DNA of 64,000 bases from Escherichia coli (GCA_009729775.1 GCA_009729775.1_4081.1); one strand, 5' to 3'; counted from the stretch's first letter, positions 36,526 to 53,319 are shown. Translations and numbers: made by a program. Notes: generated by a model from the letters alone, not told the origin.

Positions 36526-36834
36526 TTATTCCTTGATATTGATTTTAATATCTTTACCTTGTAAATCACGAATAGTTTTAATTAATGCATCATGTTTTAA
36601 AGCACATTCGTTGTATACTGCATCCCAACGAGTAAGTACTTTAAGAATTTCTGCACCATCATAACCTTTAAAACCATTTTTGTCAATCATAATTTTTTGT
36701 GGTAGAGGTGTATCATCATCACATCTTTCTAACAGAATTTCTTGTTTAATTGGTGCAGGGGATTGTAGTTTTACTTGTTCTGCACATCCACTTATAATTA
36801 AAAAAGAAATAAACGGAACTAATAATTTTTTCAT
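36526..36834 (-). CDS. lipoprotein, o-spanin candidate
   Basis: 102 aa; signal peptide with lipobox IISGC; Pro-containing mature region; ATGA overlap with upstream i-spanin candidate. Confidence 0.45.
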   Translation of the reverse strand: MKKLLVPFISFLIISGCAEQVKLQSPAPIKQEILLERCDDDTPLPQKIMIDKNGFKGYDGAEILKVLTRWDAVYNECALKHDALIKTIRDLQGKDIKINIKE

Positions 36835-37205
36835 TTGAATTTATTCCTCGCAGCTTGAGAATTTTGTTTTAGTTCATTCAGTACTTTTACACCATCTTCA
36901 TCTAAACATACATTCTTATAAACTTCACGTTCTACAATAAAAGGAACTTTTGTTTCAATAACTTTAGCATTATCTTCCATGATTTTTTTAGTTTCAAGGT
37001 AATTTTTTGCATTTTCTTGTTGCATTTTATCTAAGGCGGTATCAACTTTTTTAGCTATTTGTTGCTCTATGCTTTGTTGATAGCCACTGTAATAAGTATT
37101 AGCTTCCCAGCCAGCATAAGCTGAACCGCCAATCAATAATACAAAAGAAATTGGTTTCCAAAATGGAATAAGAATTTTTGAAACAATTATTTCTAACATA
37201 CTCAT
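36831..37205 (-). CDS. type-II membrane protein, i-spanin candidate
   Basis: 124 aa; single N-terminal TM segment then charged coiled-coil-like periplasmic region; late-promoter motif and TAGGAG SD upstream. Confidence 0.45.
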   Translation of the reverse strand: MSMLEIIVSKILIPFWKPISFVLLIGGSAYAGWEANTYYSGYQQSIEQQIAKKVDTALDKMQQENAKNYLETKKIMEDNAKVIETKVPFIVEREVYKNVCLDEDGVKVLNELKQNSQAARNKFK

Positions 37206-37232
37206 AATAATATCTCCTATAGTTGATGATAT

Positions 37233-37239
37233 TATTTAG
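37233..37239 (-). promoter_or_regulatory. late-promoter-like CTAAATA element
   Basis: Minus-strand CTAAATA about 28 nt upstream of ATG 37205. Confidence 0.35.
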
Positions 37240-37258
37240 AGTATATAATTGTATAGAT

Positions 37259-37678
37259 TTACAACATTTTTTGAATATGTTCTGCTAGTTCATACAGCTT
37301 AGTTTCATTATTCTCGAACTTTTCATCAACTTGAACATTGAATTTTTCTTCTAGTTCCATTACCATTTCAATCCAATCAAGCCAATCAAAATGGAATTTT
37401 TCTTCGACTTCCAATTTAGTAAGATTGAAGTTCGCTGATACATCATTCTCTGATGTATCACAATAACGAGTAGTGATGAATTTGACAATTTCTTTTTCAA
37501 CATCGTTTAATTCACGAGTTTGATATTCGGGCTGAAGATACCACCACTCTCCCTTATTAATAGATTCCAATTCTTGTTTGATTTCATGCATTACTTTATA
37601 ACGGTCAGTACTTTTATGAATAGAATTGACTTCTTGATTCAATACATGTAGTGCATTTTTAATACGTTCATTTAACAT
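37259..37678 (-). CDS. acyl-carrier-protein-like domain protein lacking the phosphopantetheine serine
   Basis: 139 aa; C-terminal FDWLDWIEMVMELEEKF resembles ACP DSLDTVELVMALEEEF with Ser replaced by Trp. Confidence 0.55.
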   Translation of the reverse strand: MLNERIKNALHVLNQEVNSIHKSTDRYKVMHEIKQELESINKGEWWYLQPEYQTRELNDVEKEIVKFITTRYCDTSENDVSANFNLTKLEVEEKFHFDWLDWIEMVMELEEKFNVQVDEKFENNETKLYELAEHIQKML

Positions 37679-37697
37679 TTTATCACCTTATAAAAAA

Positions 37698-37721
37698 AGA
37701 GAACTCCATATGAAGTTCTCT
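37698..37721 (-). terminator. rho-independent terminator after 929-aa gene
   Basis: Perfect 8-bp stem AGAGAACT/AGTTCTCT, 8-nt loop, followed on minus strand by TTTTTTT. Confidence 0.6.
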
Positions 37722-37752
37722 AATTATACATAATTACTTTTTCTATGTCAAG

Positions 37753-40542
37753 TTATAAATCACGGAAACGATTTGGTGTGTTTAAACGATACATTGAGTA
37801 CAATCCCAATCCACGCATAATCTCACCTGCCCAGAAACCAAAAAACATACCATTATCAGTACCTTCTCTGACTGCTGGACTCCATGAACCATTCATTGGA
37901 GAACCTGGACTTACAATAACATAGTTCTTTTGAAGTTCGAGAACTAAGTTATCAGCGAGTGTTGTTAGACCTTCTATTTTACATCCAGCCAATCCAGCAG
38001 CACAAGCCCCAGCTAACCACAACCCACACATATGACCTGTAAAGTCCCAATCTGGACCTTCAACTGTGCCATCTTTATTGAAGATTGTTGGTGAACGACC
38101 ATCATTATCTTTTTGAAATTGAATTAAAAAGTGAATCCAATTCTCACAAAATTCAACAAGATCTGCTGGTGGTTCAATTCCTCTCTCTGCGAGTTCTTGC
38201 CATGCTCTGGCAGCCCCAAAGAACGCACGTGGTTCATACCCACTCCATGCTTGATCACCCCAATGTAGCATAGTAAATGTATCTGGTTCACCATATTTTA
38301 AGTTATCCCAGCGGTTCCAAACATATGCTTGTGCACATGGACCAACAGTACCGAATTGTTGAGTAAACCATGTTTGAGAATCTTTCATAAAGCTTAACAT
38401 GTTGCCTAAACGTGTGTTATCAACTGGTTGGTCTTTAAAACAATATATCACTGGATACTGATAACCAGGATAAGGCAAACCACGCCAACCTGAATACTGA
38501 TTCGCATACGGGTCAGTGATGTTAGAAAATGGTATTGTTCCTGGAGTGTAATGCAATGAGTTTAACAAATAATCTTTGATTACACAATCCCCTAACTGTG
38601 CAGTATAAGGTGATTCACCTGCAATTGTTATTGAAAATGTCATGGTATAGTCATCACCGTCAGCATCCGTATATAATTCTGGAATGTCATTAATACAATA
38701 CCAATCAATTATTGCAGCAACGCCATCTACTGGGGTTGTATCAGGTAAAATAGTAATATCTTCTAGCTCACTATAAACTGGTGCATCTGGTCTTGGGTCA
38801 GAACTTGGATGATTTGGCTGATACCCAGATAAACGTAATGTATCAGAACTTAGTGTGATAGTAGTCCATTCCCCGTGTGTTGCAGGAATCATCCACCACC
38901 ATCTCCAACCATTATCATCTATAATTCGTATATTATAATCATCTTCATATGAACGATATGTGAAAGATTTAACTTCAGACTTATTTGTTGCTAATAACCA
39001 AAATCCAATAACAGCACCATCATCTTCACCACAAACCAACTGATTAATTGTATCGCGTCTTGTGATTAATATATCAGTACTATATAACATTTCGGACGTA
39101 GCTGCACCATAAGGAACAACAATTCTACTATCAGCAATTATATAAGGGGAACCATCTGCTTTCTTTTCTCTAACAAATGCACTTAACGGTGTTAATGAAT
39201 GTGTGATATTTTGGTCTTTACTTTCTGGTAAGCCGCAACGATAACGAACAACATCATGGTCATTTTTTGTTTTTGACAATTCCAGTACTGGTTTAAATGA
39301 TAACGGTTTACCATCATCGCACACGCCACCATAGTCAACTAGCAATTTTGAATCAGCATTTACCCTGAACCAAATAGCTTGTTGCTCCATAGTACTCTGT
39401 GCACTTTGGTCTTGTCTGATAGTAATGTATCCTAACGAATTTCTACCAAACTTAGCAATAGCATCACTTGGATAAAAATATTCATAGGAAATACCATCAG
39501 TGAATGGTGTGGTTACAATTGTACTTTGTCTGAAAAATTTATCTCTGGAGTCGATATCACCATAAGCATAGCATGTGAGTAGTGAACATTTCCAACCCAA
39601 ATAATGTTTTCTTTCTTTAGTTATTTTATATAACAAATACGAAGCATCACTAAACCATAATTCTGCATCTGATGCGTTATCAGCAAATTCTAAATCAATT
39701 GGAACATGAAGTGGGCGGTTGTGTTGCATTTCATTTCGTTGAATTATTACACCACCATATTCTACTGGTTGACGATTAGCAAAATTTAATTTATATACAC
39801 CATTAATTGTTGTATTCTTTAATTGAACAGTTCCTTTTTCAGATTCGTCAAAACCTTCTGCTAAAATATTACCATCCCAGTCGATTTTTCTACCCATGAA
39901 ATCAATAATCCAGTCAACATCATATTGTTCACCTGGTGTATCCCAATCAACACTACCATCTGGTAATAAAGCTTTTACTGACGCATTTATTTGGTTCCAT
40001 GCTAAAGCACCTTTGAATGCAAATGTCACTTTATCCAAGAACTGACCATAATATGGTGCACCATGTGGTATTTTGCATTGACCATTAGTAAATGTAAATT
40101 CTACTCCCTTGAAACCACCATGTGTGGGCCAGCCATCATCAGCTAAAGGCCAGTTAGCCAATATAGGTTCTTTTGCATTAACTATCCAGTTACATTGTAG
40201 CGGTGTAGGTGGATCTGGTAATTCACGTCCAGCATAAAAGTACTGATGATATGCGTCCCAATACCACTTTGCCTTATCTAAAAACAATGGATCATTTGTA
40301 GCCAGATATGCATAAATGTATCCTAAAATTAATAGACTTTGACCTTCTGTTGTCCCGTCACCGTTTGGTTGACCTTCCATTGCAGAATAGTTAATAAAAT
40401 GGCGGTTGTTCGCCAAAACACCCTGATTGTTCACCACATAATGCTGTACTGTTGGATCTATAGTATCACCAGTATTTCTTTCAATAAATTTGTGATGCCC
40501 ATAAAGAAGTTGTACAATATTATCAATATTATTGTTTAACAT
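37753..40542 (-). CDS. large Trp-rich protein (929 aa), possible virion-associated hydrolase or fibre component
   Basis: Long ORF, W/Y/G-rich; no motif confidently recognised. Confidence 0.55.
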   Translation of the reverse strand: MLNNNIDNIVQLLYGHHKFIERNTGDTIDPTVQHYVVNNQGVLANNRHFINYSAMEGQPNGDGTTEGQSLLILGYIYAYLATNDPLFLDKAKWYWDAYHQYFYAGRELPDPPTPLQCNWIVNAKEPILANWPLADDGWPTHGGFKGVEFTFTNGQCKIPHGAPYYGQFLDKVTFAFKGALAWNQINASVKALLPDGSVDWDTPGEQYDVDWIIDFMGRKIDWDGNILAEGFDESEKGTVQLKNTTINGVYKLNFANRQPVEYGGVIIQRNEMQHNRPLHVPIDLEFADNASDAELWFSDASYLLYKITKERKHYLGWKCSLLTCYAYGDIDSRDKFFRQSTIVTTPFTDGISYEYFYPSDAIAKFGRNSLGYITIRQDQSAQSTMEQQAIWFRVNADSKLLVDYGGVCDDGKPLSFKPVLELSKTKNDHDVVRYRCGLPESKDQNITHSLTPLSAFVREKKADGSPYIIADSRIVVPYGAATSEMLYSTDILITRRDTINQLVCGEDDGAVIGFWLLATNKSEVKSFTYRSYEDDYNIRIIDDNGWRWWWMIPATHGEWTTITLSSDTLRLSGYQPNHPSSDPRPDAPVYSELEDITILPDTTPVDGVAAIIDWYCINDIPELYTDADGDDYTMTFSITIAGESPYTAQLGDCVIKDYLLNSLHYTPGTIPFSNITDPYANQYSGWRGLPYPGYQYPVIYCFKDQPVDNTRLGNMLSFMKDSQTWFTQQFGTVGPCAQAYVWNRWDNLKYGEPDTFTMLHWGDQAWSGYEPRAFFGAARAWQELAERGIEPPADLVEFCENWIHFLIQFQKDNDGRSPTIFNKDGTVEGPDWDFTGHMCGLWLAGACAAGLAGCKIEGLTTLADNLVLELQKNYVIVSPGSPMNGSWSPAVREGTDNGMFFGFWAGEIMRGLGLYSMYRLNTPNRFRDL

Positions 40543-40543
40543 A

Positions 40544-41080
40544 TCATACTCCTGCTCTAATTAATGCACCGTACCATGTAACTCCTTTATCATATGTTTC
40601 TAATGAAATAATATCTTTTTCACCAATTTCATAAGAAAGAACAACTGGTCTATTATATGACCATTTAACATTTGAACCCCAATTAACGAGGTTAGACCCT
40701 GTTTGCTGAGTTAATAGGATAGTAATTGAATAAACTTCAGTAGGAGCAGAACCAATAGCAATAGTGGTATTTCTATCAGATAAATTAATATTAAAAACTG
40801 TATTACCTGATAGGGGATTAATTAAAATATTATTAGAACTCAATACATTATATAACTTGTTACTAGCACTATCATACAATGTTACCCATTCTGTTTCATG
40901 ATTCTCATTAGTAGCTTTAGCTTTTATTTTTACATTATTTTCGGAAGAAGTCATTCCAGTCCAGCCAGAAATAATAAAAGAACTGTTTTTATTTGTTCCA
41001 AATGATGCAATTACCGAATCACTAAGAGAACTATCTTCACCGTCAATAGATCCGAGTACTGACAATGTTAAAACCATCAT
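40544..41080 (-). CDS. fibre-like S/T/N-rich protein (178 aa), possibly 3' part of a frameshifted gene
   Basis: No SD before ATG 41080; upstream ORF 41043..41243 ends inside an A5 run one frame away. Confidence 0.5.
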   Translation of the reverse strand: MMVLTLSVLGSIDGEDSSLSDSVIASFGTNKNSSFIISGWTGMTSSENNVKIKAKATNENHETEWVTLYDSASNKLYNVLSSNNILINPLSGNTVFNINLSDRNTTIAIGSAPTEVYSITILLTQQTGSNLVNWGSNVKWSYNRPVVLSYEIGEKDIISLETYDKGVTWYGALIRAGV

Positions 41081-41243
41081 TTTTAATGTCTACGCCAGTT
41101 GCACCTGAAAAATTATTTTGAAATTTAATAACTCCGGTAGTGTGGATATCTGTGAAAATTTGTTGTGCCATACTTAATCCTTGCGTTAATTTATATTGAG
41201 TATTTATCGAGTATAATGGCATTTTTAGTACCATTATACTCAT
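41043..41243 (-). CDS. small ORF (66 aa), possibly 5' part of a frameshifted gene
   Basis: Starts 5 nt after stop of upstream NTase gene; terminates within overlap with 40544..41080. Confidence 0.35.
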   Translation of the reverse strand: MSIMVLKMPLYSINTQYKLTQGLSMAQQIFTDIHTTGVIKFQNNFSGATGVDIKNDGFNIVSTRIY

Positions 41244-41248
41244 GTATA

Positions 41249-42481
41249 TTACTTATACCATTGCATTTCTCTGATATCAATGATAATTTTTGATGCTAAT
41301 TTAATGTTTGGTTTTTTGGGAAGTACTGATTTCTTATATAGAACATCACGAATGTATTGTACTTTATCATCGAAATATTCTAATACTTCTTCATACTTCC
41401 ACTTACCATTACGAATATCCATCAACATTTGTGCATCAGGTCGTTTAACTTGAATAATTCCACTCTGTAATGCTTCTTCTGCACTATTCAAAAGTCTAAT
41501 TGTGTGCATAGCATGTTTGCAATCGAATCCGTGTTGTGATTCTAAAATAGCACGTTTGGCATTACGATTTTCTTTCCATTTATGATAACTTTTCCTATTC
41601 TCACTATTTTCCTGATATTCTTTTTCGTTAAATTTTACAATTAGTTCTGGTTTGGTTTTCAACTCTTCAGTACTACGCTCTTTAGAAAAATAACGCAATG
41701 AACCATCACCATTGATAGTACTTTCATTCGGATTTTTAATAATCGCAAAAATGTTTTCTCCGTAATGAATTAGTTCATAGCCATTATTAAAATTCAATAA
41801 ATTGAAATCACGATCTAGAATTTTATCAGTAGTGTAGTTATGCACTAATCTTACAAAATGATATTGCTTTAATGGATTTTTCGAAACTAACTGCAATGAC
41901 GTATCACGCATATATTTTTCAAAATCAATCTTTTTAGCATTAAATGGATGTAAGTTCGATGTATCTAAACGTTCAACAAGATATTGTGGAAATGAATCAT
42001 ACATCCACGCAAGAACCTCATCGACTGGGTGTTCTTCTAAAATCTCATTTAATCGTTTTTCAGCAATACGCTCTTTATCCATCCAACCGTGATGATTTGT
42101 CATACGCTTAATCTGATTATATGCATATCCAGTGTATGAAAATGCAATCTTGGAACTAAGAAGTTTTTGGTTAAATGAACGAAGATAGTCATAAATTTCA
42201 GTACTTTCAACAATGTGTTCAGGTTCAACCCAAAGTGATTCAAGAATATTAGGGTTAGCTTCAGTGTATAATTTTAAATACTGATTCAACTCATAGAATT
42301 TAGTATCTTCTTCGCTTTTATCAGCTACCTCTTTGACCTTATAGAAGGGTGTAAGAATAAATTCTTTATTAGCAAGAAAAATACCACGATAATCAGTATC
42401 ACTTTCAGGTGTACTGGTTCCGTAGGCTTGTGACCCAGCCAAGTGTTTCACTATTGTTTGTTCAATATATTGGTTATTCAT
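41249..42481 (-). CDS. Pol-beta-superfamily nucleotidyltransferase (410 aa)
   Basis: N-terminal GSQAYGTSTPESDTDYRG fits G-S-x(9-13)-D-x-D nucleotidyltransferase signature; rest unassigned. Confidence 0.6.
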   Translation of the reverse strand: MNNQYIEQTIVKHLAGSQAYGTSTPESDTDYRGIFLANKEFILTPFYKVKEVADKSEEDTKFYELNQYLKLYTEANPNILESLWVEPEHIVESTEIYDYLRSFNQKLLSSKIAFSYTGYAYNQIKRMTNHHGWMDKERIAEKRLNEILEEHPVDEVLAWMYDSFPQYLVERLDTSNLHPFNAKKIDFEKYMRDTSLQLVSKNPLKQYHFVRLVHNYTTDKILDRDFNLLNFNNGYELIHYGENIFAIIKNPNESTINGDGSLRYFSKERSTEELKTKPELIVKFNEKEYQENSENRKSYHKWKENRNAKRAILESQHGFDCKHAMHTIRLLNSAEEALQSGIIQVKRPDAQMLMDIRNGKWKYEEVLEYFDDKVQYIRDVLYKKSVLPKKPNIKLASKIIIDIREMQWYK

Positions 42482-42879
42482 AGATAAATTGTTAACTCCT
42501 TTAAGAAACCATTATAATAACGATTAAAGTCATGTTCTAATGTTTTATAATCATCAAAACTAAAACCTAAATTGATAATTGTATCTTCTTGAAAGAAAGT
42601 TTCTTCATTCATACATTCAATAGGTTCGTAATTAATTCCACCTTTGAAAACTTTTGTAAAAAACATTCCATCATTATTAATTTCAACATACATAAAATTA
42701 TTTTCTGGATCACGAGGACAGACGATATTCAGTGAACTATTTCCACTTGTATTGTACTCATAAGAAATTATATCAAAAGAATCAATACCATAACACTTAG
42801 ATTTTTCTTTATCGCCAAATACTTTTCTATCTGTACTCATATTGCGTATAGTGCTATAGATATCATCAACTGTAGTCAT
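42478..42879 (-). CDS. hypothetical protein (133 aa)
   Basis: ORF in track; 4-nt overlap with NTase gene. Confidence 0.45.
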   Translation of the reverse strand: MTTVDDIYSTIRNMSTDRKVFGDKEKSKCYGIDSFDIISYEYNTSGNSSLNIVCPRDPENNFMYVEINNDGMFFTKVFKGGINYEPIECMNEETFFQEDTIINLGFSFDDYKTLEHDFNRYYNGFLKELTIYL

Positions 42880-42881
42880 AG

Positions 42882-43391
42882 TTAACCACCATACTTTGAC
42901 TTGTATGTTTCAAGTGATAAAGATATACGATTTTGCTTTTTAATTCTTTCATCAATATCCTTTGAATTCTTCACACTTCGGTATACGTCAGCTAATAAAT
43001 TATAATCTTCTTTATTTGAGCTATGCTGTGTCCAACCTATGTCTGTTTTAATACGAACACTTGCTTTATTTGACGAGTAAAAGAAACTGAAACCATTTGA
43101 CCCATCAAAAATATCAAAAGTATCTACCCAATCACCATAAGGAAAACTCATTGGGACTGACTCGTGGTCGATTGTGATATCCGATAAATTTTTTGAACAG
43201 TACTTCGCAAAGTGATAAACGATTGGATCACATTTTGATAATTCGTATTTGTATTCAATGATAGTTTTTCTATTAGCATCATTGATAGCATATTCTTTTA
43301 TCAATGGACTTTTTTTGATGATAAGAGTCCATAGAAACGATTCTAATCCGGTTTCATCAACTTTTTGTTTCTTTTTGAAAAATGAAATCAT
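42882..43391 (-). CDS. small-protein paralog family member 3 (169 aa)
   Basis: Shares block xxD(N/D)DR(K/R)xxI(E/D)xKYxLSK with 43388..43909 and 43916..44482. Confidence 0.5.
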   Translation of the reverse strand: MISFFKKKQKVDETGLESFLWTLIIKKSPLIKEYAINDANRKTIIEYKYELSKCDPIVYHFAKYCSKNLSDITIDHESVPMSFPYGDWVDTFDIFDGSNGFSFFYSSNKASVRIKTDIGWTQHSSNKEDYNLLADVYRSVKNSKDIDERIKKQNRISLSLETYKSKYGG

Positions 43392-43909
43392 TTATATAAA
43401 CCCTTAATTTTCTGTCTATTATGTATATCATTTTGCTGGATTTTCAATTTAGTAAGGTTGTTTCTTACACCTTCAACTCCACGCATTATTTGTAACATAA
43501 TTAGTGATTCGTCATATGTTAGTACATTGCTATTATTATCGATATATACTTTCACTCCACTTTCAAGATAATCATTTTCTTTGGAGTTAAAGTTTCTAAT
43601 AACAAACTTAACGCCATTTGATGTATCACTGAAAACATATCGTTCCGCACCGTAGAATGTTTTTCCACGAAATAAACCGCCGTCTTCCCACTTCCAACGA
43701 CTAGATTCATAATCATTAACGTAATCAATGATTAAAGAAAGTAAAGGATGTTTGCTCAATTTATATTTTGCATCTAACAGGATACGTCTATCATTATCTG
43801 TGGTAATAATATCCTTTAGTGAGTAGCTTTTAGATATAATTTTAAAGATAATTTCATGCCAAATTAAAGTACTGTTTTGTTTTCCAACTGATCCAAAAAA
43901 CATATCCAT
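43388..43909 (-). CDS. small-protein paralog family member 2 (173 aa)
   Basis: Paralog block TDNDRRILLDAKYKLSK; SxRWKWEDGG. Confidence 0.5.
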   Translation of the reverse strand: MDMFFGSVGKQNSTLIWHEIIFKIISKSYSLKDIITTDNDRRILLDAKYKLSKHPLLSLIIDYVNDYESSRWKWEDGGLFRGKTFYGAERYVFSDTSNGVKFVIRNFNSKENDYLESGVKVYIDNNSNVLTYDESLIMLQIMRGVEGVRNNLTKLKIQQNDIHNRQKIKGLYK

Positions 43910-43915
43910 TCCTCA

Positions 43916-44482
43916 TTAGTATAAATCAGTAATGTCTTTGTATGCATTAATCTGTTTTTGTTGTAATGAAAGTTCATTGAGTTTAGTTACCATTTTATCT
44001 ACACCAACACGTGTATAGAAAATAATAAATGAATCTAAATTGCCTAGAGTAATTCTTGAACTGAAATTTGAAAGTTTTCTTGCATAAACATAAATTTCTT
44101 CTTCACTTGGTAAACGTTTCTCAATCGGCCAGCTTTCCACACCATTCGGCTCATAATCGATTTCAAATTCAACTCCCATCACTGTGTCTTGAATGCGATC
44201 CGTATATGAACCACCGTAAAAATACTCTCTTGGTTTGGATCTCCAACGAGGACTAAATGGGTCAGTTGCGTATTCTTTTACAAATTTGTAAAAGGACATT
44301 TTACTGAGCATATACTTCATCTCAATTAGTGCTTTGCGGTCATCATCAGTTTTAAACTCTGCTTTTAGCGATGGACTTTTACACAGTAACTTAACTAAAT
44401 TGTTGTACATCTTTAATGTACGTTGTTCTTTCATTTCTTTGATTTTGTGACGTTTTGGTGGTGGTAATAAAGATTTGACCAT
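43916..44482 (-). CDS. small-protein paralog family member 1 (188 aa)
   Basis: Paralog block TDDDRKALIEMKYMLSK; SPRWRSKPRE; AGGAGG SD. Confidence 0.5.
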   Translation of the reverse strand: MVKSLLPPPKRHKIKEMKEQRTLKMYNNLVKLLCKSPSLKAEFKTDDDRKALIEMKYMLSKMSFYKFVKEYATDPFSPRWRSKPREYFYGGSYTDRIQDTVMGVEFEIDYEPNGVESWPIEKRLPSEEEIYVYARKLSNFSSRITLGNLDSFIIFYTRVGVDKMVTKLNELSLQQKQINAYKDITDLY

Positions 44483-44524
44483 AATTTCCTCCTATTTTTA
44501 TTCAATTATACACATAAAAGAAAA

Positions 44525-44553
44525 GCCCGTCAATAGACGAGCTTTAAATTTAT
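44525..44553 (-). promoter_or_regulatory. near-consensus sigma70 promoter (-35 TTGACG, 17 bp, -10 TATAAT)
   Basis: Read on minus strand; about 40 nt upstream of ATG 44482; -35 lies inside the upstream terminator hairpin. Confidence 0.5.
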
Positions 44554-44565
44554 TTCCAACGTGTG
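44542..44565 (-). terminator. rho-independent terminator overlapping fibre gene stop
   Basis: 10-bp stem with one mismatch, 4-nt loop, followed on minus strand by TTTTCTTTT. Confidence 0.55.
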
Positions 44566-47279
44566 CCTGGACCTGATGGTACACCAGTACTGGCAGGTAT
44601 CGCTGAACCACGTTTCGTTGTACTTGGACGATATGTCAAAAAACGAGTTACTTTTTCTGTATCAATTGAATTTATTCCTGAAGTTCCAGTAACTATCTTA
44701 CCAATGTAAGTGCTAGTTAAAGATTCATCAATTGTTTCAGTACTAATAACATATGACGCTTTCTTAGTATTCCTGTTCATTTGTATATACAAATAGAACG
44801 TAGTATTAGCTGGATTACTTTTTACAGTACTTAAATCAACACTTTGTATAGGTAGTCTGTCGAAAATTCCACCTAAAAACACCGGAACTTCACGTGTAAA
44901 GTACACTGAGAATCCTTGTGCAACGTCTTGTGATACTACCACAATCTTTTCTTTAACGCTACCATTTCCGCTAATTAAACCATCCATTTCAGCAGATGTT
45001 GTACCAAAAACGCTGAATACAGATTTGGTTTGATAGTCAGAATCTTGAAAATTGTAATATCCAAAACCAACACCAGGAATAACACCATGTTGATATGCTG
45101 CACCAAGTTGGATGTAACTAGATGATAAAAAACGATTTGATGTTATGACACCATCTACTGTTTTAGCTATCATCATCTTAAATTGTGCATTACCTGGTTG
45201 TGAAAATTGATGTACGGCATCAACACCAATGTAACCAAATCCTGAATATTTTGCAACTGTTAGACCAGTACAACGTTTCATATATGCTTCAGTAATAATT
45301 CCTGTAACAGAACTCAGTGTTTCATATCTAGTACTCACCAATGTAGCTGAAGTTATGTTAGTTCCAGATAATACAACATCAACTTCGGCATAGATTGCAT
45401 AACCTTGGTTATTGTTAAGATTATATGCTGAAACTACTGCGATGGATTTAGAAAAAGTATTATCAGGTACATAATATAATACAATTTGTCCAGATAGTGT
45501 ACCAACAATGCCAGAGTTTCCTATATTAGCAAAAATATCTTGTTTTAATGATTCTAATACCGTTGGTTCTATTGTATATGTTTCATCAAATTCTAAAGTA
45601 TCTGGATTTAATAATCCACCACTTGTTTTATATACACCTTCAATGAATGATGTTCCATAGCATCTAACACTACCATCGGTATCAACAAGAGAAATCATAG
45701 CAGTGTATGTAAAATCATCGCCTATTTGTTTACGATTAGATTGTGGTGCAAAACCATTTAATGTAGTATTATGTTGAACTGAGTTATATTGATATGTTGG
45801 TTGTGAACCTATTTCAGAAAAAACAGTATTATTATAATTATATGTTACATCATCATACGTACCAGAACATGCTAATAATATTTTTCTATTATCGATGAAA
45901 CGTACACCTAAAAGGTTTGCACCAACAGCACTACCAAAAACTGGTAAAACGTTTGCATTTATAACATTACTTGCGGATCTAGTACTGGCAACCCATGAAT
46001 CAAACGGTGTACCACTAACCTTATATCGTTGTAGACCATAAAATTCAGTTGAACTCCATCTAAATTTAGATGCAAATACCAAACCATCTTTAGTTTGACA
46101 TAAACCACCTGCGTTTCCTAATACGCCAGCAGCAGTTGTCCCGGTGAAGTTGACCATATCAATTTCAAAAGGGTTAGAAACTTGAAATCCATTATTATAT
46201 GAAACAGTCGCAGGTGCACGAGCACTACCATCTAGGGACATAGATTTTGAGTTTATATTATAAACAAAACTTATGCCAGTACCATAAACTGTTGAAATAT
46301 ACAAAGGTGTAACCATTCGATGTGTTGGATATAAAGTTACACGTATTTTTGATAAATCAGGACTAACGTTGGCTTGTATATTAAAGTCTGTATAATCTGA
46401 AAATTCTACACGTGATACGGGTGATGTAACTTCGAATAATGAATCCGAGCTAGTACCAACACTATATAATTTATCGAACACTCTTATGTTATTAGATGCA
46501 GAATAACTTGTGTTTCGAACAGTTTGTCCTGATAACCCAGTAACTTTTGTTAATGATGCCATTGAGCTTGCTTTCACATCACTTAGCTCTACTGTGTAAA
46601 TGGAAAGTGCTAATCCCAAATTAGAAACACTCTTATCTTTACACCAAATATAAACCTTTGTCCCAACAATATGTGTATATATTGGCATATCATTACCAAA
46701 AGAAGTACTTGGTACTTTAGCATGAATATGTGATATTTCGTTAAATGTACCATTGGTTATAGTGAAAATATAATTATCTTCAGTACTTAAACACCCAAGC
46801 ATTTCATAACCATTAGAGCCAATAAAGTACTTAATATTTTCAGTACTACTCATAATTGAAGGTTTATACATTGAATTGGTTGAAATAACACTTTCTTGTG
46901 AAATCATAGTTATATTTCTGATTTCTCGTATAAATGAATAATAAAAACCTTTAGTACTACCATTGGTTCCGCTACGCAGAACAACGGCGGTTCCATCATC
47001 TTCAATAATTGTTGGCTGAACTACTTGGTCACTTGACATAGGTGTAGCACCTTCATACGACCCACTTACGTTTAATGGTAAGTAATCCATTTCTCCTATA
47101 CGTGATATAGGCAACATATCTAAAATACTTTGAACTTCAGAACGCTTATATATTGGATATTGAACAATTCCAGTATTGGCATTCGGTGAGGTTCCATTAA
47201 AAGTACGCATAGCGTACCTTTGTCCAATTGCCAAGTTCCCAAGGATCTCGGCACTTCCTATAATTCGTTTTGATGACAT
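44550..47279 (-). CDS. tail fibre protein (about 909 aa)
   Basis: Track ORF 44550..47369; start at Met31 (47279) avoids overlap; N-terminus paralogous to 47895..50591; conserved C-terminal module shared with two neighbours. Confidence 0.6.
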   Translation of the reverse strand: MSSKRIIGSAEILGNLAIGQRYAMRTFNGTSPNANTGIVQYPIYKRSEVQSILDMLPISRIGEMDYLPLNVSGSYEGATPMSSDQVVQPTIIEDDGTAVVLRSGTNGSTKGFYYSFIREIRNITMISQESVISTNSMYKPSIMSSTENIKYFIGSNGYEMLGCLSTEDNYIFTITNGTFNEISHIHAKVPSTSFGNDMPIYTHIVGTKVYIWCKDKSVSNLGLALSIYTVELSDVKASSMASLTKVTGLSGQTVRNTSYSASNNIRVFDKLYSVGTSSDSLFEVTSPVSRVEFSDYTDFNIQANVSPDLSKIRVTLYPTHRMVTPLYISTVYGTGISFVYNINSKSMSLDGSARAPATVSYNNGFQVSNPFEIDMVNFTGTTAAGVLGNAGGLCQTKDGLVFASKFRWSSTEFYGLQRYKVSGTPFDSWVASTRSASNVINANVLPVFGSAVGANLLGVRFIDNRKILLACSGTYDDVTYNYNNTVFSEIGSQPTYQYNSVQHNTTLNGFAPQSNRKQIGDDFTYTAMISLVDTDGSVRCYGTSFIEGVYKTSGGLLNPDTLEFDETYTIEPTVLESLKQDIFANIGNSGIVGTLSGQIVLYYVPDNTFSKSIAVVSAYNLNNNQGYAIYAEVDVVLSGTNITSATLVSTRYETLSSVTGIITEAYMKRCTGLTVAKYSGFGYIGVDAVHQFSQPGNAQFKMMIAKTVDGVITSNRFLSSSYIQLGAAYQHGVIPGVGFGYYNFQDSDYQTKSVFSVFGTTSAEMDGLISGNGSVKEKIVVVSQDVAQGFSVYFTREVPVFLGGIFDRLPIQSVDLSTVKSNPANTTFYLYIQMNRNTKKASYVISTETIDESLTSTYIGKIVTGTSGINSIDTEKVTRFLTYRPSTTKRGSAIPASTGVPSGPGTRWK

Positions 47280-50625: not shown

Positions 50626-50633
50626 TATTTATA
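50626..50633 (-). promoter_or_regulatory. T4-type late promoter TATAAATA
   Basis: Exact TATAAATA on minus strand 35 nt upstream of ATG 50591, directly after nrdG terminator. Confidence 0.5.
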
Positions 50634-50667: not shown

Positions 50668-51138
50668 TTAAAAATCTTTATTTTTATATAGTATTCTTTG
50701 ATTATTTGAACCACGGAAAGGTAATTTTAAATTCTTTTCGGACTCGATAAACTTACCATCAACTAATACATCTAAGTACTGAAGTATATCTTTAGCATGA
50801 TTTTTCATAATCTCATCTAAAGTATACCCACTCCAGCACCAAATAGTTTTACTAGGATAAGTTTCTTTAACTACTTTGCATAGATTTAAAACTTCATCTA
50901 TATTCTTTTTCATTAATGGATCGCCGCCTAGAAGTGACAAACCACTAACATATGGTTTTTTTAGTTCCTGTAGTATAATCTCAACTGTTTCAGTACTGAA
51001 CAATTGACCACTTCTGTAATCCCATGCTTCTTCATTGAAGCAACCATCACATCCGTGCGAACACCCACTAACAAATAAAGAGCAGCGAACGCCCTCTCCA
51101 TTTACTAAATCATCCTTGATTATCGTCTGGTAATTCAT
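50668..51138 (-). CDS. nrdG: anaerobic ribonucleotide reductase activating protein (radical SAM)
   Basis: 156 aa; CSHGCDGC (C-x3-C-x2-C) cluster; adjacent to nrdD. Confidence 0.85.
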   Translation of the reverse strand: MNYQTIIKDDLVNGEGVRCSLFVSGCSHGCDGCFNEEAWDYRSGQLFSTETVEIILQELKKPYVSGLSLLGGDPLMKKNIDEVLNLCKVVKETYPSKTIWCWSGYTLDEIMKNHAKDILQYLDVLVDGKFIESEKNLKLPFRGSNNQRILYKNKDF

Positions 51139-51442
51139 CTAATATTGCACTCACTATTTCGACAAGAACATCGCCGTGACATGATTTTGGTTTACAGAAA
51201 CAACCAAGGCGTTTCCCTGCGAGTTCAAGTAATTCATCAATCTTAACTTCTCCACAAGAAATACGTTCAATAATGTATTCTCTGAATTTTTCAATTGATT
51301 CTTCTCTTGTACTAACAATGAACTCGGCTTTGGTTTGTTTATCTTTAATATGGGTAAATGGGTTTCCCCATTTAGACCCACGTCCAATATACACATCATA
51401 CGGTTCTTTGTATTTGTTAACCACAATTGGCTTTAAATCCAT
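51110..51442 (-). CDS. small conserved protein between nrdD and nrdG (DUF4326-like, from memory)
   Basis: 110 aa; motif YDVYIGRGSKWGNPF and CFCKPKSCHGD; overlaps nrdG start by 29 nt. Confidence 0.5.
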   Translation of the reverse strand: MDLKPIVVNKYKEPYDVYIGRGSKWGNPFTHIKDKQTKAEFIVSTREESIEKFREYIIERISCGEVKIDELLELAGKRLGCFCKPKSCHGDVLVEIVSAILDELPDDNQG

Positions 51443-51450
51443 AATTTACC

Positions 51451-53319
51451 TTATTTGTGCTGAATACGCTCACAACACTCTTGTTGTTTGCCTTTATTGA
51501 ATCCACGCGAAGAAGGATTACCCAAGTAACCAGAAACACGACGAATCACTGAGATTGTCTTCTCATTACGATTATCACATACCGGACAGTGGAAACCATG
51601 TTTATCTACACTGAACTCACCCTGGAAGCCACATTCATAACAATGGTCAACTGGTTGGTTAATACCAAAATATGGTATCTTCGTGTAAGCATAGTTAACT
51701 AATGTTTCAAGTGCTTGAATGTTGTTTGCTAAGTTTGGAGATTCAACATAACTGATGTTTCCACCGTTACTTAGGTAAGCAAAGCCTTCTTCATAACTCC
51801 ATTTATCAAATGGAGAACTTTCTACCCATACTGGTTGATGGAAGGAATTTGTGATGTAATCACGTTTTAGTACTGAAGGATATTTTGCTTCAATACAACG
51901 TGCAAATTTATAACAAAGTGACTCTGCTGGCGTTCCATATAGACTAAAAGCTATATTACTCTCTTTTTTGAACTCATCGCATTTTACTTTCATATAATTC
52001 AGTACTGACATACAAAACTCCTTACTGATAGAACCAGTGAGGATTTCTGAACATTCAACAAGTCCAACATAACCAATACTAATACTAGCATAACCATTGT
52101 AAAATAGCTTGTCAATGGTTTCTTCTGCACCTAAACGTGCTAATGCACCTTCCATGAACAAAATTGGATTTTGCTTTGCTTTAGTGCCTTTTAAACGCTC
52201 TACGCGGTTCATCTGAGCACGATATGCAATATTCATATGCTCGTCTATCTTATCAAAAAACTCTCCGTCAGAAGTACTCTCAAGAGCAATTAGAGGTAAA
52301 TTGATAGAAACCACACCTAAATTGAAACGACCGTTGTATTGTTCATTTCCATTTGAATCTTCCCATTTTCCTAAGAATGAACGACAGCCCATCGGTGTTA
52401 CAGCAGTACTACTACTTCCAGTCACTTTGTGATTTAATGGTACTGAAACAAAGTCAGGGTAGATTCGTTTTGATGCACAACGCATAGCTAACTGTTTAAG
52501 GTCATAATTACTATCGTTGGTATTCATGTTTATACCATCTTGTAAAAAGAAAATTACTTTAGGAAACACTGGAGTAATCTTATCTTTACCTAAACCATTC
52601 TCATGGACTTTTAAGTACTGTTCAGTGATTAATTTGCCAAATTTAGAAGTGTTAAGACCTAAACTAAGAGAAATAAATGCAGCTTGACCATTAGTACTAA
52701 TCATTGAATTAGTTTGGTAAAGTAATGTTTGGCAGCCATCATACACTTCTTTACGTAGTTCTTCTTCAATGAATTCATCACTTAGATTATATTTCTTTTG
52801 TTTTTCTAACAGCTTATCCCATGACTTTTGAACGTAAGGTTCTAATCCGACATCAATGTGAGCCAAAGATTGACCACCATACTGGGAACTGGCAACAGCT
52901 TGGACAATTTGTGTCAGTACTGTGCAAGCTACACTGAAACTTTTTGGTTCTTCAATTTTAGCACAACCAATAGTGAAGCCGTTTTTAAGCATATCAGGAT
53001 AGTTAACCAAGCAACAATTGGTCAATGGGCTAATATAGTAATCTAAATCATGAATATGACCATATCCATCATTATGCCATTGCATTAACTCGGTGGGAAT
53101 AACATCTTGTGAATAATGCTTAGATAGAATACCTGCTAGTAAATCTCTATGTGTATTGACGCATTTTGCATCTTTATTAGCGTTTTCATTAGTAAGATCA
53201 GTATTACTCTGATTTAGGAAATTTGTTACATCGGTATATAATTTATCTAATTGCATTGTACATTCCTTGTATTTTGAAATCATCTGGGGGTGAAGATATT
53301 TAATATCACCAGACAACAT
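51451..53319 (-). CDS. nrdD: anaerobic ribonucleoside-triphosphate reductase (class III)
   Basis: 622 aa; NENANKD, TNCCLV, QYGG blocks; C-terminal Zn ribbon and glycyl-radical motif RRVSGYLG; close to T4 NrdD as recalled. Confidence 0.92.
   Translation of the reverse strand: MLSGDIKYLHPQMISKYKECTMQLDKLYTDVTNFLNQSNTDLTNENANKDAKCVNTHRDLLAGILSKHYSQDVIPTELMQWHNDGYGHIHDLDYYISPLTNCCLVNYPDMLKNGFTIGCAKIEEPKSFSVACTVLTQIVQAVASSQYGGQSLAHIDVGLEPYVQKSWDKLLEKQKKYNLSDEFIEEELRKEVYDGCQTLLYQTNSMISTNGQAAFISLSLGLNTSKFGKLITEQYLKVHENGLGKDKITPVFPKVIFFLQDGINMNTNDSNYDLKQLAMRCASKRIYPDFVSVPLNHKVTGSSSTAVTPMGCRSFLGKWEDSNGNEQYNGRFNLGVVSINLPLIALESTSDGEFFDKIDEHMNIAYRAQMNRVERLKGTKAKQNPILFMEGALARLGAEETIDKLFYNGYASISIGYVGLVECSEILTGSISKEFCMSVLNYMKVKCDEFKKESNIAFSLYGTPAESLCYKFARCIEAKYPSVLKRDYITNSFHQPVWVESSPFDKWSYEEGFAYLSNGGNISYVESPNLANNIQALETLVNYAYTKIPYFGINQPVDHCYECGFQGEFSVDKHGFHCPVCDNRNEKTISVIRRVSGYLGNPSSRGFNKGKQQECCERIQHK

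Follow-up and report, generated by a model that had tools for sequence, protein, structure and literature searches.

RlaP nucleotidyltransferases (NTases) owe their name to their linkage to RNA ligases and were predicted to restore nucleotides ahead of ligation (PMC7824862); in 2021, Iyer et al. described them as the RNA-end NTases most prevalent in jumbo phages, where they are distributed much as RNA ligases are (PMC7824862). According to a 2025 preprint, RlaP from Pseudomonas adds one or two nucleoside monophosphates to the 3′-OH ends of RNA – DNA and protein not being substrates – with a preference for Mn2+ and for a 3′ end that mimics a cleaved anticodon loop (PMC12776372). The enzyme also raises the aminoacylation of a one-nucleotide-short tRNA once this has been religated, and it has been proposed to aid the repair of tRNA cut by anticodon nucleases; T4 NrdC.11 was placed in the same family, in cluster 5 of PF10127 (PMC12776372). 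Here, we describe a member of this family encoded in a 64,000-nucleotide stretch of DNA from an Escherichia coli assembly (GCA_009729775.1; the whole stretch is referred to as the window), where it belongs to a five-gene operon on the minus strand.

The explanation that we favour, with a probability of roughly 60%, is that this is a conserved operon whose RlaP-family NTase acts in counter-defence RNA repair. Its proposed logic is that of T4 tRNA repair, in which PseT and RnlA counter PrrC and both of whose enzymes have orthologues in the lineage studied here, although in its classical form that pathway works without adding nucleotides. A step by RlaP has been postulated only where the nuclease takes nucleotides away as well, as RloC does, and no host nuclease is known as a target for Asteriusvirus. 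RlaP enzymes are predicted to supply the ‘missing nucleotide’ when RNA is repaired after nucleases have both cut and trimmed tRNA, and a coliphage orthologue with a co-conserved small partner would offer a tractable system for studying nucleotide addition against RloC-type defences.

A conserved operon of 121Q-like jumbo coliphages

The window is from an Asteriusvirus jumbo coliphage, with 98.8% DNA identity to published genomes of this genus (121Q/PBECO4/G17-like). The 3.3-kb stretch that holds the operon is 98–99% identical to vB_EcoM_CRJP21, G17, Sharanji, 121Q, PBECO4 and phAPEC6. The locus is already annotated in dozens of published genomes, where the large gene is labelled ‘nucleotidyltransferase’ (121Q, G17 and others; 121Q gp506 and G17_00417 are the same gene, 98–99% identical) and the remaining operon genes are labelled hypothetical. 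As the enzyme family has also been described, the uncharacterised remainder of the locus consists of an orphan family of paralogues and a co-conserved 133-residue protein.

All five genes proposed by an earlier, sequence-only reading of this DNA – three paralogues (X1 to X3), the 133-residue protein and the 410-residue NTase – are present, on the minus strand and tightly packed (Table 1). They are separated by gaps of 2–6 nt or overlap by 4 nt, two of the junctions being 4-nt stop/start overlaps, and the first is preceded by a ribosome-binding site (AGGAGG) 7 nt upstream of its ATG at 44482. A terminator scan found no canonical terminator inside the operon, and none of its five products (0/5) is present in the virion proteome of phAPEC6 as determined by mass spectrometry (PMC7247149). 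The set is a conserved non-structural operon, and its role is probably one in counter-defence. The window contains no tRNA genes or Rfam families, and a repeat search of 37600–44600 returned chance-level pairs only.

Table 1. Positions, counted from the first letter of the window, of the operon and the features around it
Feature	Position	Strand	Basis and remarks
Upstream virion structural gene, 909 aa from the G17-annotated ATG	44550..47279	-	In the listed 939-aa reading frame, a GTG further upstream is the start
Intrinsic terminator hairpin: 10-bp stem, 4-nt loop, U-tract	44522..44545	-	Scan; G17 record also annotates a terminator here
Putative sigma70-type promoter	44505..44533	-	-35 TTGACG 44533-44528, 17-nt spacer, -10 TATAAT 44510-44505
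Paralogue X1, 188 aa, isoelectric point (pI) 9.3	43916..44482	-	Orphan family
Paralogue X2, 173 aa, pI 9.2	43388..43909	-	BLAST to X1; phrog_18641/7868 cross-hits
Paralogue X3, 169 aa, pI 8.7, most diverged	42882..43391	-	4-nt overlap with X2
Acidic 133-aa protein, pI 4.4	42478..42879	-	Stop overlaps NTase start by 4 nt; phrog_22376 (unknown function)
410-aa Pol-beta superfamily NTase, RlaP family (PF10127), T4/T2 NrdC.11-like	41249..42481	-	Pfam, PHROG, hhalign
Stem-loop of 13-14 bp without U-tract, directly past the NTase stop	41209..41241	-	Folding free energy (dG) about -17 kcal/mol, z = -3.4, 1/200 shuffles
T4-type late-promoter-like ATAAATA	41201..41207	-	36 nt before the ATG at 41171
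Fibre module	37753..41171	-	PHROG tail families; no counterpart here in Turkey3, Muenster or CBB
42-aa reading frame	41043-41171	-	phAPEC6 gp315c
178-aa tail fibre protein	40544-41080	-	PHROG tail family
929-aa tail protein	37753-40542	-	phAPEC6 gp314c
Putative sigma70-type promoter, perfect 12/12, abutting terminator hairpin 37721-37698	37723-37751	-	G17 annotates the terminator

The nucleotidyltransferase is a member of the RlaP family

The sequence-only reading had presented the 410-residue protein as an NTase of unknown substrate and asked whether it was of the MNT/AbiEii or CD-NTase type. It belongs instead to the described RlaP (PF10127, T4 NrdC.11-like) family, which was characterised biochemically in 2025 (PMC12776372). 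The protein scores 59.5 bits against PF10127 (gathering cutoff 23; E=5.4e-16) and matches the ‘nucleotidyltransferase’ family phrog_388 over its full length (E=5e-76). In a search of 5.8 billion proteins, PF10127 was carried by 120 of 120 homologues among the matches listed. A comparison with PADLOC-DB, a library of defence-system proteins, gave no match at E up to 0.05, and the similarity to MNT and HalB is limited to weak resemblance of the core fold.

The G-S-x(n)-D-x-D signature, on which the earlier reading had rested its assignment to the NTases, stands as proposed: it corresponds to G16-S17...D28-x-D30, and these four residues are invariant, together with D59, in an alignment of the protein with its homologues (42 sequences). 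D59 pairs with an Asp of T2 NrdC.11 in the hhalign alignment and is predicted to be the third metal ligand. The same 42-sequence alignment shows a cluster of invariant residues near the C-terminus – W302, R306, N307, R310, E314, G318, D320, K322, H326, R329, R347, D349 and R357 – which includes the motif G318-D320-K322-H326-R329. In an AF2 model (predicted local distance difference test, pLDDT, 92), the N-terminal domain is of the alpha/beta type and the C-terminal one (286–409) is helical, with an insertion of ~130 residues between them.

This modelled layout was compared with those of the known family members; in the crystal structure of PfRlaP, the NTase domain and the helical domain form a cleft. 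Like PfRlaP and PaRlaP, the Pseudomonas enzymes, the protein exceeds the Pfam threshold and has the G-S...D-x-D signature with a third invariant Asp, and it may share their arrangement of an N-terminal NTase domain and a C-terminal helical one, the latter with many conserved basic residues. Unlike them, it reaches ~410 residues with an interdomain insertion of ~130 residues, and only its N-terminal half is matched by Pfam; the domain comparison was based on the AF2 model and on the alignment with NrdC.11. With T2 NrdC.11, hhalign gives a probability of 97.7% (E=2e-12), in an alignment that takes in the catalytic domain as well as the G-x-D-x-K...H..R segment near the C-terminus. Like T4/T2 NrdC.11, with which it shares a full-length profile alignment, the window NTase is phage-encoded, lies downstream of an nrdD/nrdG region and has no experimentally assigned function – no functional study of NrdC.11 was found in the literature. 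It differs from NrdC.11 in length (410 vs 336 residues; ~27% identity) and in its surroundings: the neighbours of T-even nrdC.11, mobD and nrdC.x, are not those seen in the window.

By tblastn, the NTase family is found in 642 phage records, with identities of 73% in Alcyoneusvirus (Muenster gp239), 56% in CBB (CBB_159), 35–44% over the full length in Vequintavirinae (PVP-SE1/GAP31 type) and ~28% over the N-terminal part in T-even phages. In other genera, the gene has different neighbours: CBB has Thg1 and a methyltransferase beside it, and GAP31 encodes a CCA enzyme close by.

Proposed RNA repair and the alternative substrates

In the mechanism that we propose, the terminator would stop transcription of the upstream late virion-protein operon, and a sigma70-type promoter – with its −35 element in the hairpin arm and its −10 element past the U-tract – would re-initiate it. 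The NTase so expressed would, by homology with Pseudomonas RlaP, add one or two nucleotides to RNA 3′-OH ends. The substrate, we infer, is likely to be tRNA halves that have been cut and trimmed by host anticodon nucleases, after which the phage PseT kinase/phosphatase and RnlA ligase would reseal a functional tRNA. The outcome would be counter-defence through RNA repair; the anti-defence suggestion of the sequence-only reading is consistent with the family’s proposed repair of RNA cut by ribotoxins such as anticodon nucleases.

As for PfRlaP and PaRlaP, the genome also encodes a 5′-phosphate RNA ligase (RnlA) and PseT: orthologues of both are found in PBECO4, G17, phAPEC6 and Sharanji (59% and 58% identical to those of CBB, respectively), with their genes ~37–39 kb from the NTase gene and outside the window. 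These phages have also been reported to carry a CCA-adding enzyme and tRNA genes (PMC11895373). It is because of these orthologues and the reported CCA enzyme that the RNA-repair reading fits at the genome level.

Several observations weigh against it. RlaP activity is known only for PfRlaP and PaRlaP (PMC12776372) and for no phage member, T4 NrdC.11 included. No RNA ligase or kinase is encoded in or adjoining the operon – the operon and its neighbourhood in the 64-kb window having been examined – so that the linkage from which RlaP takes its name is seen at the level of the genome only and not at that of the operon. Unlike the genes for PfRlaP and PaRlaP, the window gene does not share an operon with an RNA ligase or RtcB but is coupled to the gene for the 133-residue protein, behind the orphan paralogue array. 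The genes found between paralogues and RlaP vary by lineage (in CBB, Thg1, a DUF4326 protein and a methyltransferase), and the paralogues may for this reason be functionally unrelated to the enzyme. As to the enzyme itself, the Pfam match is confined to residues 13–131; the ~130-residue insertion has no Pfam model and is absent from the ~350-residue homologues of Vequintavirinae and from the 336-residue T2 NrdC.11. Foldseek searches of the PDB return nothing beyond weak matches to generic Pol-beta cores, namely those of kanamycin NTase, Hailong HalB and MNT (E >= 0.01), and protein and profile searches found no sequence relatives there.

One alternative is a non-RNA substrate, whether a protein (as for MNT/AbiEii), a small molecule (as for aminoglycoside NTases) or an oligonucleotide signal or decoy (as for HalB), through which the enzyme would neutralise a defence directly. 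The best PDB folds are indeed the cores of kanamycin NTase, HalB and MNT, and neither the insertion nor the coupled 133-residue protein has a counterpart in characterised RlaP. However, the matches (E 0.01–0.1, template-modelling score about 0.2–0.3) extend to the shared Pol-beta core only, the search of PADLOC-DB was negative, the placement in PF10127 is firm, and the tested members of the family modified neither protein nor DNA. We therefore consider a substrate other than RNA very unlikely.

A different alternative keeps RNA as the substrate but dispenses with ligation: the NTase would tail RNA, adding short non-templated 3′ tails or topping up tRNA 3′ ends for host takeover. In vitro, RlaP labels rRNA, full-length tRNA and single-stranded RNA with little specificity for the nucleoside triphosphate (PMC12776372), no ligase gene is adjacent to that of the NTase, and the separate CCA-adding enzyme and tRNA genes amount to an investment in tRNA end metabolism (PMC11895373). 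Yet that same dedicated CCA enzyme is already at hand in the genome, RlaP adds just one or two nucleotides and favours an end like that of a cleaved anticodon loop, and the family co-occurs with RNA ligases across jumbo phages – all of which makes tailing unlikely, and RNA repair the reading that we retain.

Companion proteins

The three small proteins encoded ahead of the NTase were claimed to be tandem paralogues, and they do form a real, if uneven, family. X1 and X2 are 30% identical (BLAST, E=3e-15), whereas X3 shares with either of them only an N-terminal motif by BLAST (E about 1e-4). Over their entire length, however, the three proteins fit into a single family alignment that also contains Muenster gp235 and gp236 and CBB_150, 153, 155 and 156; they are true but uneven paralogues. 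An exhaustive profile search of 1.84 billion representatives found only 28 members, of 46–209 residues (most ~140–210). By BLAST, 45 of 50,697 phage records have the family, each of them from Asteriusvirus, Alcyoneusvirus or close relatives. The family is thus confined to RaK2-like jumbo phages. For the 173-residue paralogue and the 133-residue protein, a word-indexed homologue search recovers close relatives only.

Five residues of the orphan family – D46, R49, K56, Y57 and S60 – are invariant and lie on one helix, and the terminal residue is Tyr. The predicted fold of X1 (pLDDT 88.7) combines an N-domain that is helical and basic with a sheet of four strands and a C-terminal helix 40 residues long, with no convincing neighbour in the PDB and only uncharacterised jumbo-phage proteins as neighbours in BFVD. 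Neither the paralogues nor the 133-residue protein match Pfam, NCBIfam or PADLOC. The basic helical domain and long C-terminal helix of the model suggest dimeric factors that bind nucleic acid or protein. A weak PHROG match (E=0.006) had hinted that X3 resembles HNH endonucleases of one family in their C-terminal portion, but this link was rejected by profile comparison with the window’s own HNH protein.

The 133-residue protein is co-conserved directly upstream of the NTase. Its orthologues are 59% identical in Muenster and 40% identical in the metagenome contig L009, where the gene again overlaps that of RlaP by 4 nt; to CBB_158 the similarity is marginal only. The stop/start overlap and this co-conservation make it probable that the protein acts as a partner of the NTase or regulates it. 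The gene that precedes nrdC.11 in T2 was considered as its counterpart, but the two turned out by comparison to be unrelated.

One could go further and see in the paralogues (as adaptors that select different damaged tRNAs, or as inhibitors of host anticodon nucleases) and in the 133-residue protein (as a regulatory subunit) accessory factors of RlaP, making up a new multi-component RNA-repair/anti-ribotoxin module specific to RaK2-like jumbo phages. We regard this extended version as quite improbable.

The operon as backbone and the fibre genes as insertion

The sequence-only reading had pictured an early module inserted into a late region. Comparison with Turkey3, Klebsiella phage Muenster and Pectobacterium phage CBB reverses this picture: the operon, together with acyl-carrier-like and spanin genes downstream, is the conserved backbone, and the fibre genes are a lineage-specific later insertion. 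The order of promoter, paralogue array, 133-residue protein and RlaP is kept in Turkey3, Muenster and L009. CBB keeps promoter, paralogues and RlaP, with the tRNA-His guanylyltransferase Thg1 in between; at 3 kb upstream, Thg1 is the RNA-end enzyme nearest to the CBB RlaP gene, and its interleaving with the paralogues means that this gene string holds a second RNA-end-repair enzyme. More fully (L003, 2339–5791), the genes that precede RlaP in CBB are four members of the orphan family, interleaved with those for Thg1, a DUF4326 protein and an N4-cytosine methyltransferase.

Downstream of the NTase, the lineages differ in what separates it from the acyl-carrier-like gene. In Turkey3, a mere 10 nt separate the NTase stop from the acyl-carrier-like gene, behind which come the spanins and an HNH endonuclease, whereas three small genes intervene in Muenster and CBB; fibres are absent there. 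These small genes (Muenster, L002 8257–9175; CBB, L003 8233–9174) are two tandem paralogues ending in EDY(D/E)CGY and a gene for a 200-residue protein, and neither the window nor Turkey3 has them. At the same place, the window has a block that comprises the stem-loop at 41209–41241, ATAAATA, the 42-residue reading frame, the 178-residue fibre, the 929-residue tail protein and a 12/12 promoter with a terminator (37751–37698). G+C content is 35–40% in the fibre module and 29–31% in the operon.

The fibre genes, through which the operon might continue according to the earlier reading, form an insertion with its own late-type motif and are not part of the conserved operon. It had also been stated that no terminator occurs until 37698–37721. 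The next canonical terminator is indeed found there, but a stable stem-loop without a U-tract lies before it, at 41209–41241. This stem-loop, which Turkey3 lacks, lies where the fibre insertion has its 5′ edge; it may define a transcript end or affect stability, or may act as a leaky terminator.

At the other edge, the elements at 37698–37751 are predicted to end the fibre module and to restart transcription into the acyl-carrier-like, spanin and HNH genes. This joint mirrors the arrangement at 44505–44545: the promoter lies upstream of the hairpin, with the predicted start within its 5′ arm. Because the start would fall inside the arm, upstream transcripts would terminate, while the joint’s own transcripts would lack a complete hairpin. 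The synteny comparison shows host-range cassettes of fibre genes, with their own putative late promoter and a terminator–promoter joint, spliced into a conserved operon, which should be useful for annotation and engineering.

The terminator–promoter joint and the timing of expression

A near-consensus sigma70 promoter had been proposed directly after the terminator of the upstream gene. An element of this kind does exist in that position; the interval originally given, 44525–44553, is ~20 nt off the true one (44505–44533) and mostly covers the terminator hairpin at 44545–44522. Half of the ten base pairs of the terminator stem (five) are G–C, and the stem is followed by TTTTCTTTT; its folding free energy is −17 kcal/mol (z = −5.2), with none of 200 shuffles equally stable. 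The hairpin closes the upstream virion-protein operon, and the −35 hexamer sits in its 3′ arm. Eleven of the twelve hexamer positions match the consensus, 22 nt upstream of the ATG at 44482, and transcription is predicted to start near 44498.

The same hairpin–promoter block, 43 nt long, is 100% conserved in Turkey3, where the region is 86% identical and the sequence diverges immediately on either side of the block. Ahead of the first paralogue, CBB and L009 have the same layout in unrelated sequence, with TTGACA within the hairpin, 17 nt and TATTAT; in Muenster, a separate terminator is followed by TTGACA-17-TAAAAT at the same position. A promoter-like element is hence seen at this position in four lineages (Turkey3, Muenster, CBB and L009), with the −35 element within a hairpin in three, and we take the element at 44505–44545 to be a probable functional terminator–promoter joint. 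The linear GenBank records of RaK2 (JQ513383) and K64-1 (AB897757) both start exactly at a member of the orphan family (positions 11–208) and were therefore opened at the terminator–promoter joint.

How much a promoter of this type says can be judged from its frequency. A general scan for the sigma70 consensus (36–47 kb) returned 58 sites against 61.8 in shuffles, so that weak matches carry no meaning. Exact occurrences of TTGACN-17-TATAAT number three in the window, against 0.13 expected, and all three are on the coding strand. If 11 or 12 matches out of 12 are required, the minus (coding) strand has 14 sites over the whole window, whereas the plus strand has none. Many of the 14 lie inside reading frames just ahead of the next gene (e.g. 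8993, 9104, 26093, 35670 and 36686), suggesting that internal promoters are dense throughout this segment of the genome.

The operon may be expressed early, but similar promoters are common on the coding strand, the spanin genes of Turkey3 would be served by this promoter as well, and an RpoD-like sigma factor is among the products of these phages themselves (PMC11895373, PMC5259590); no Asteriusvirus transcriptome was found in the literature. One may then ask whether the operon is middle or late, or constitutive – by read-through, the phage’s own sigma factor or both – and whether its five genes form a mere convenience group that shares no pathway. Beyond the intragenic position of many of the 14 sites and the uninterrupted run from the Turkey3 promoter into the lysis genes, the variable gene content between paralogues and RlaP speaks for this. 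On the other side, the terminator ahead of the promoter is strong and conserved, the promoter recurs across lineages, the late motif seen ahead of the structural modules on either side is missing from the cassette, and RpoD-like promoters of CBB cluster in its presumed early region (PMC5259590). We hold this alternative to be possible but doubtful, and keep to a probable counter-defence operon whose promoter at the joint may act early.

Flanking virion genes and late-type motifs

The structural nature of the flanking genes, as originally assumed, was borne out. Orthologues of the 929-residue (gp314c) and 898-residue (gp323c) proteins are detected by mass spectrometry in phAPEC6 virions (PMC7247149), and the 909-residue protein is 36% identical (E=2e-130) to CBB_149, which is annotated as structural. 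The gene for this 909-residue protein is the last of a late module of 898, 195 and 909 residues, ahead of which TATAAATA is found at 50633.

On the minus strand, six of eight occurrences of ATAAATA lie 35–57 nt upstream of a start codon, against a background of 3.7%; the other strand has two occurrences. The six start-proximal sites (first base, minus strand) are 12437, 12962, 16673, 19747, 41207 and 50632, and the full TATAAATA is present only at 50633. As ATAAATA has been described for late genes of CBB and GAP32 (PMC5259590), the six sites are consistent with T4-type late promoters.

Further upstream, nrdD, a DUF4326 gene and nrdG (50668–53319, minus strand) precede the structural trio. This gene order, together with the homology to NrdC.11, suggests, by comparison with the T4 gene order, an old T4-like backbone. 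DUF4326 lies between nrdD and nrdG in the window but beside the paralogue array in CBB and L009, which indicates local rearrangement of a shared gene set.

Downstream of the fibre module, at 36526–37678 (minus strand), are genes for an acyl-carrier-like protein of 139 residues (a weak PP-binding_2 match, below threshold), an i-spanin-like protein of 124 residues, an o-spanin-like protein of 102 residues with a lipobox and an overlapping start, and the HNH endonuclease. The order of acyl-carrier-like, spanin and HNH genes is the same in Muenster and CBB.

Within the fibre module, the 42-residue reading frame corresponds to phAPEC6 gp315c, detected in virions with 69% coverage, while the 178-residue frame is unannotated in phAPEC6. 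The two overlap by 38 nt, with the fibre frame in +1, and no convincing slippery site for a programmed frameshift joining them was seen. Two readings fit the 42-residue product: a virion protein of very small size, or the N-terminal portion of a fibre protein that arises by frameshifting. The 929-residue gene has a G+C content of 35–40%, compared with ~30% in its surroundings, which fits recent horizontal acquisition, and the note on this gene in the phAPEC6 record cites Salmonella phage PVP-SE1, of the Vequintavirinae.

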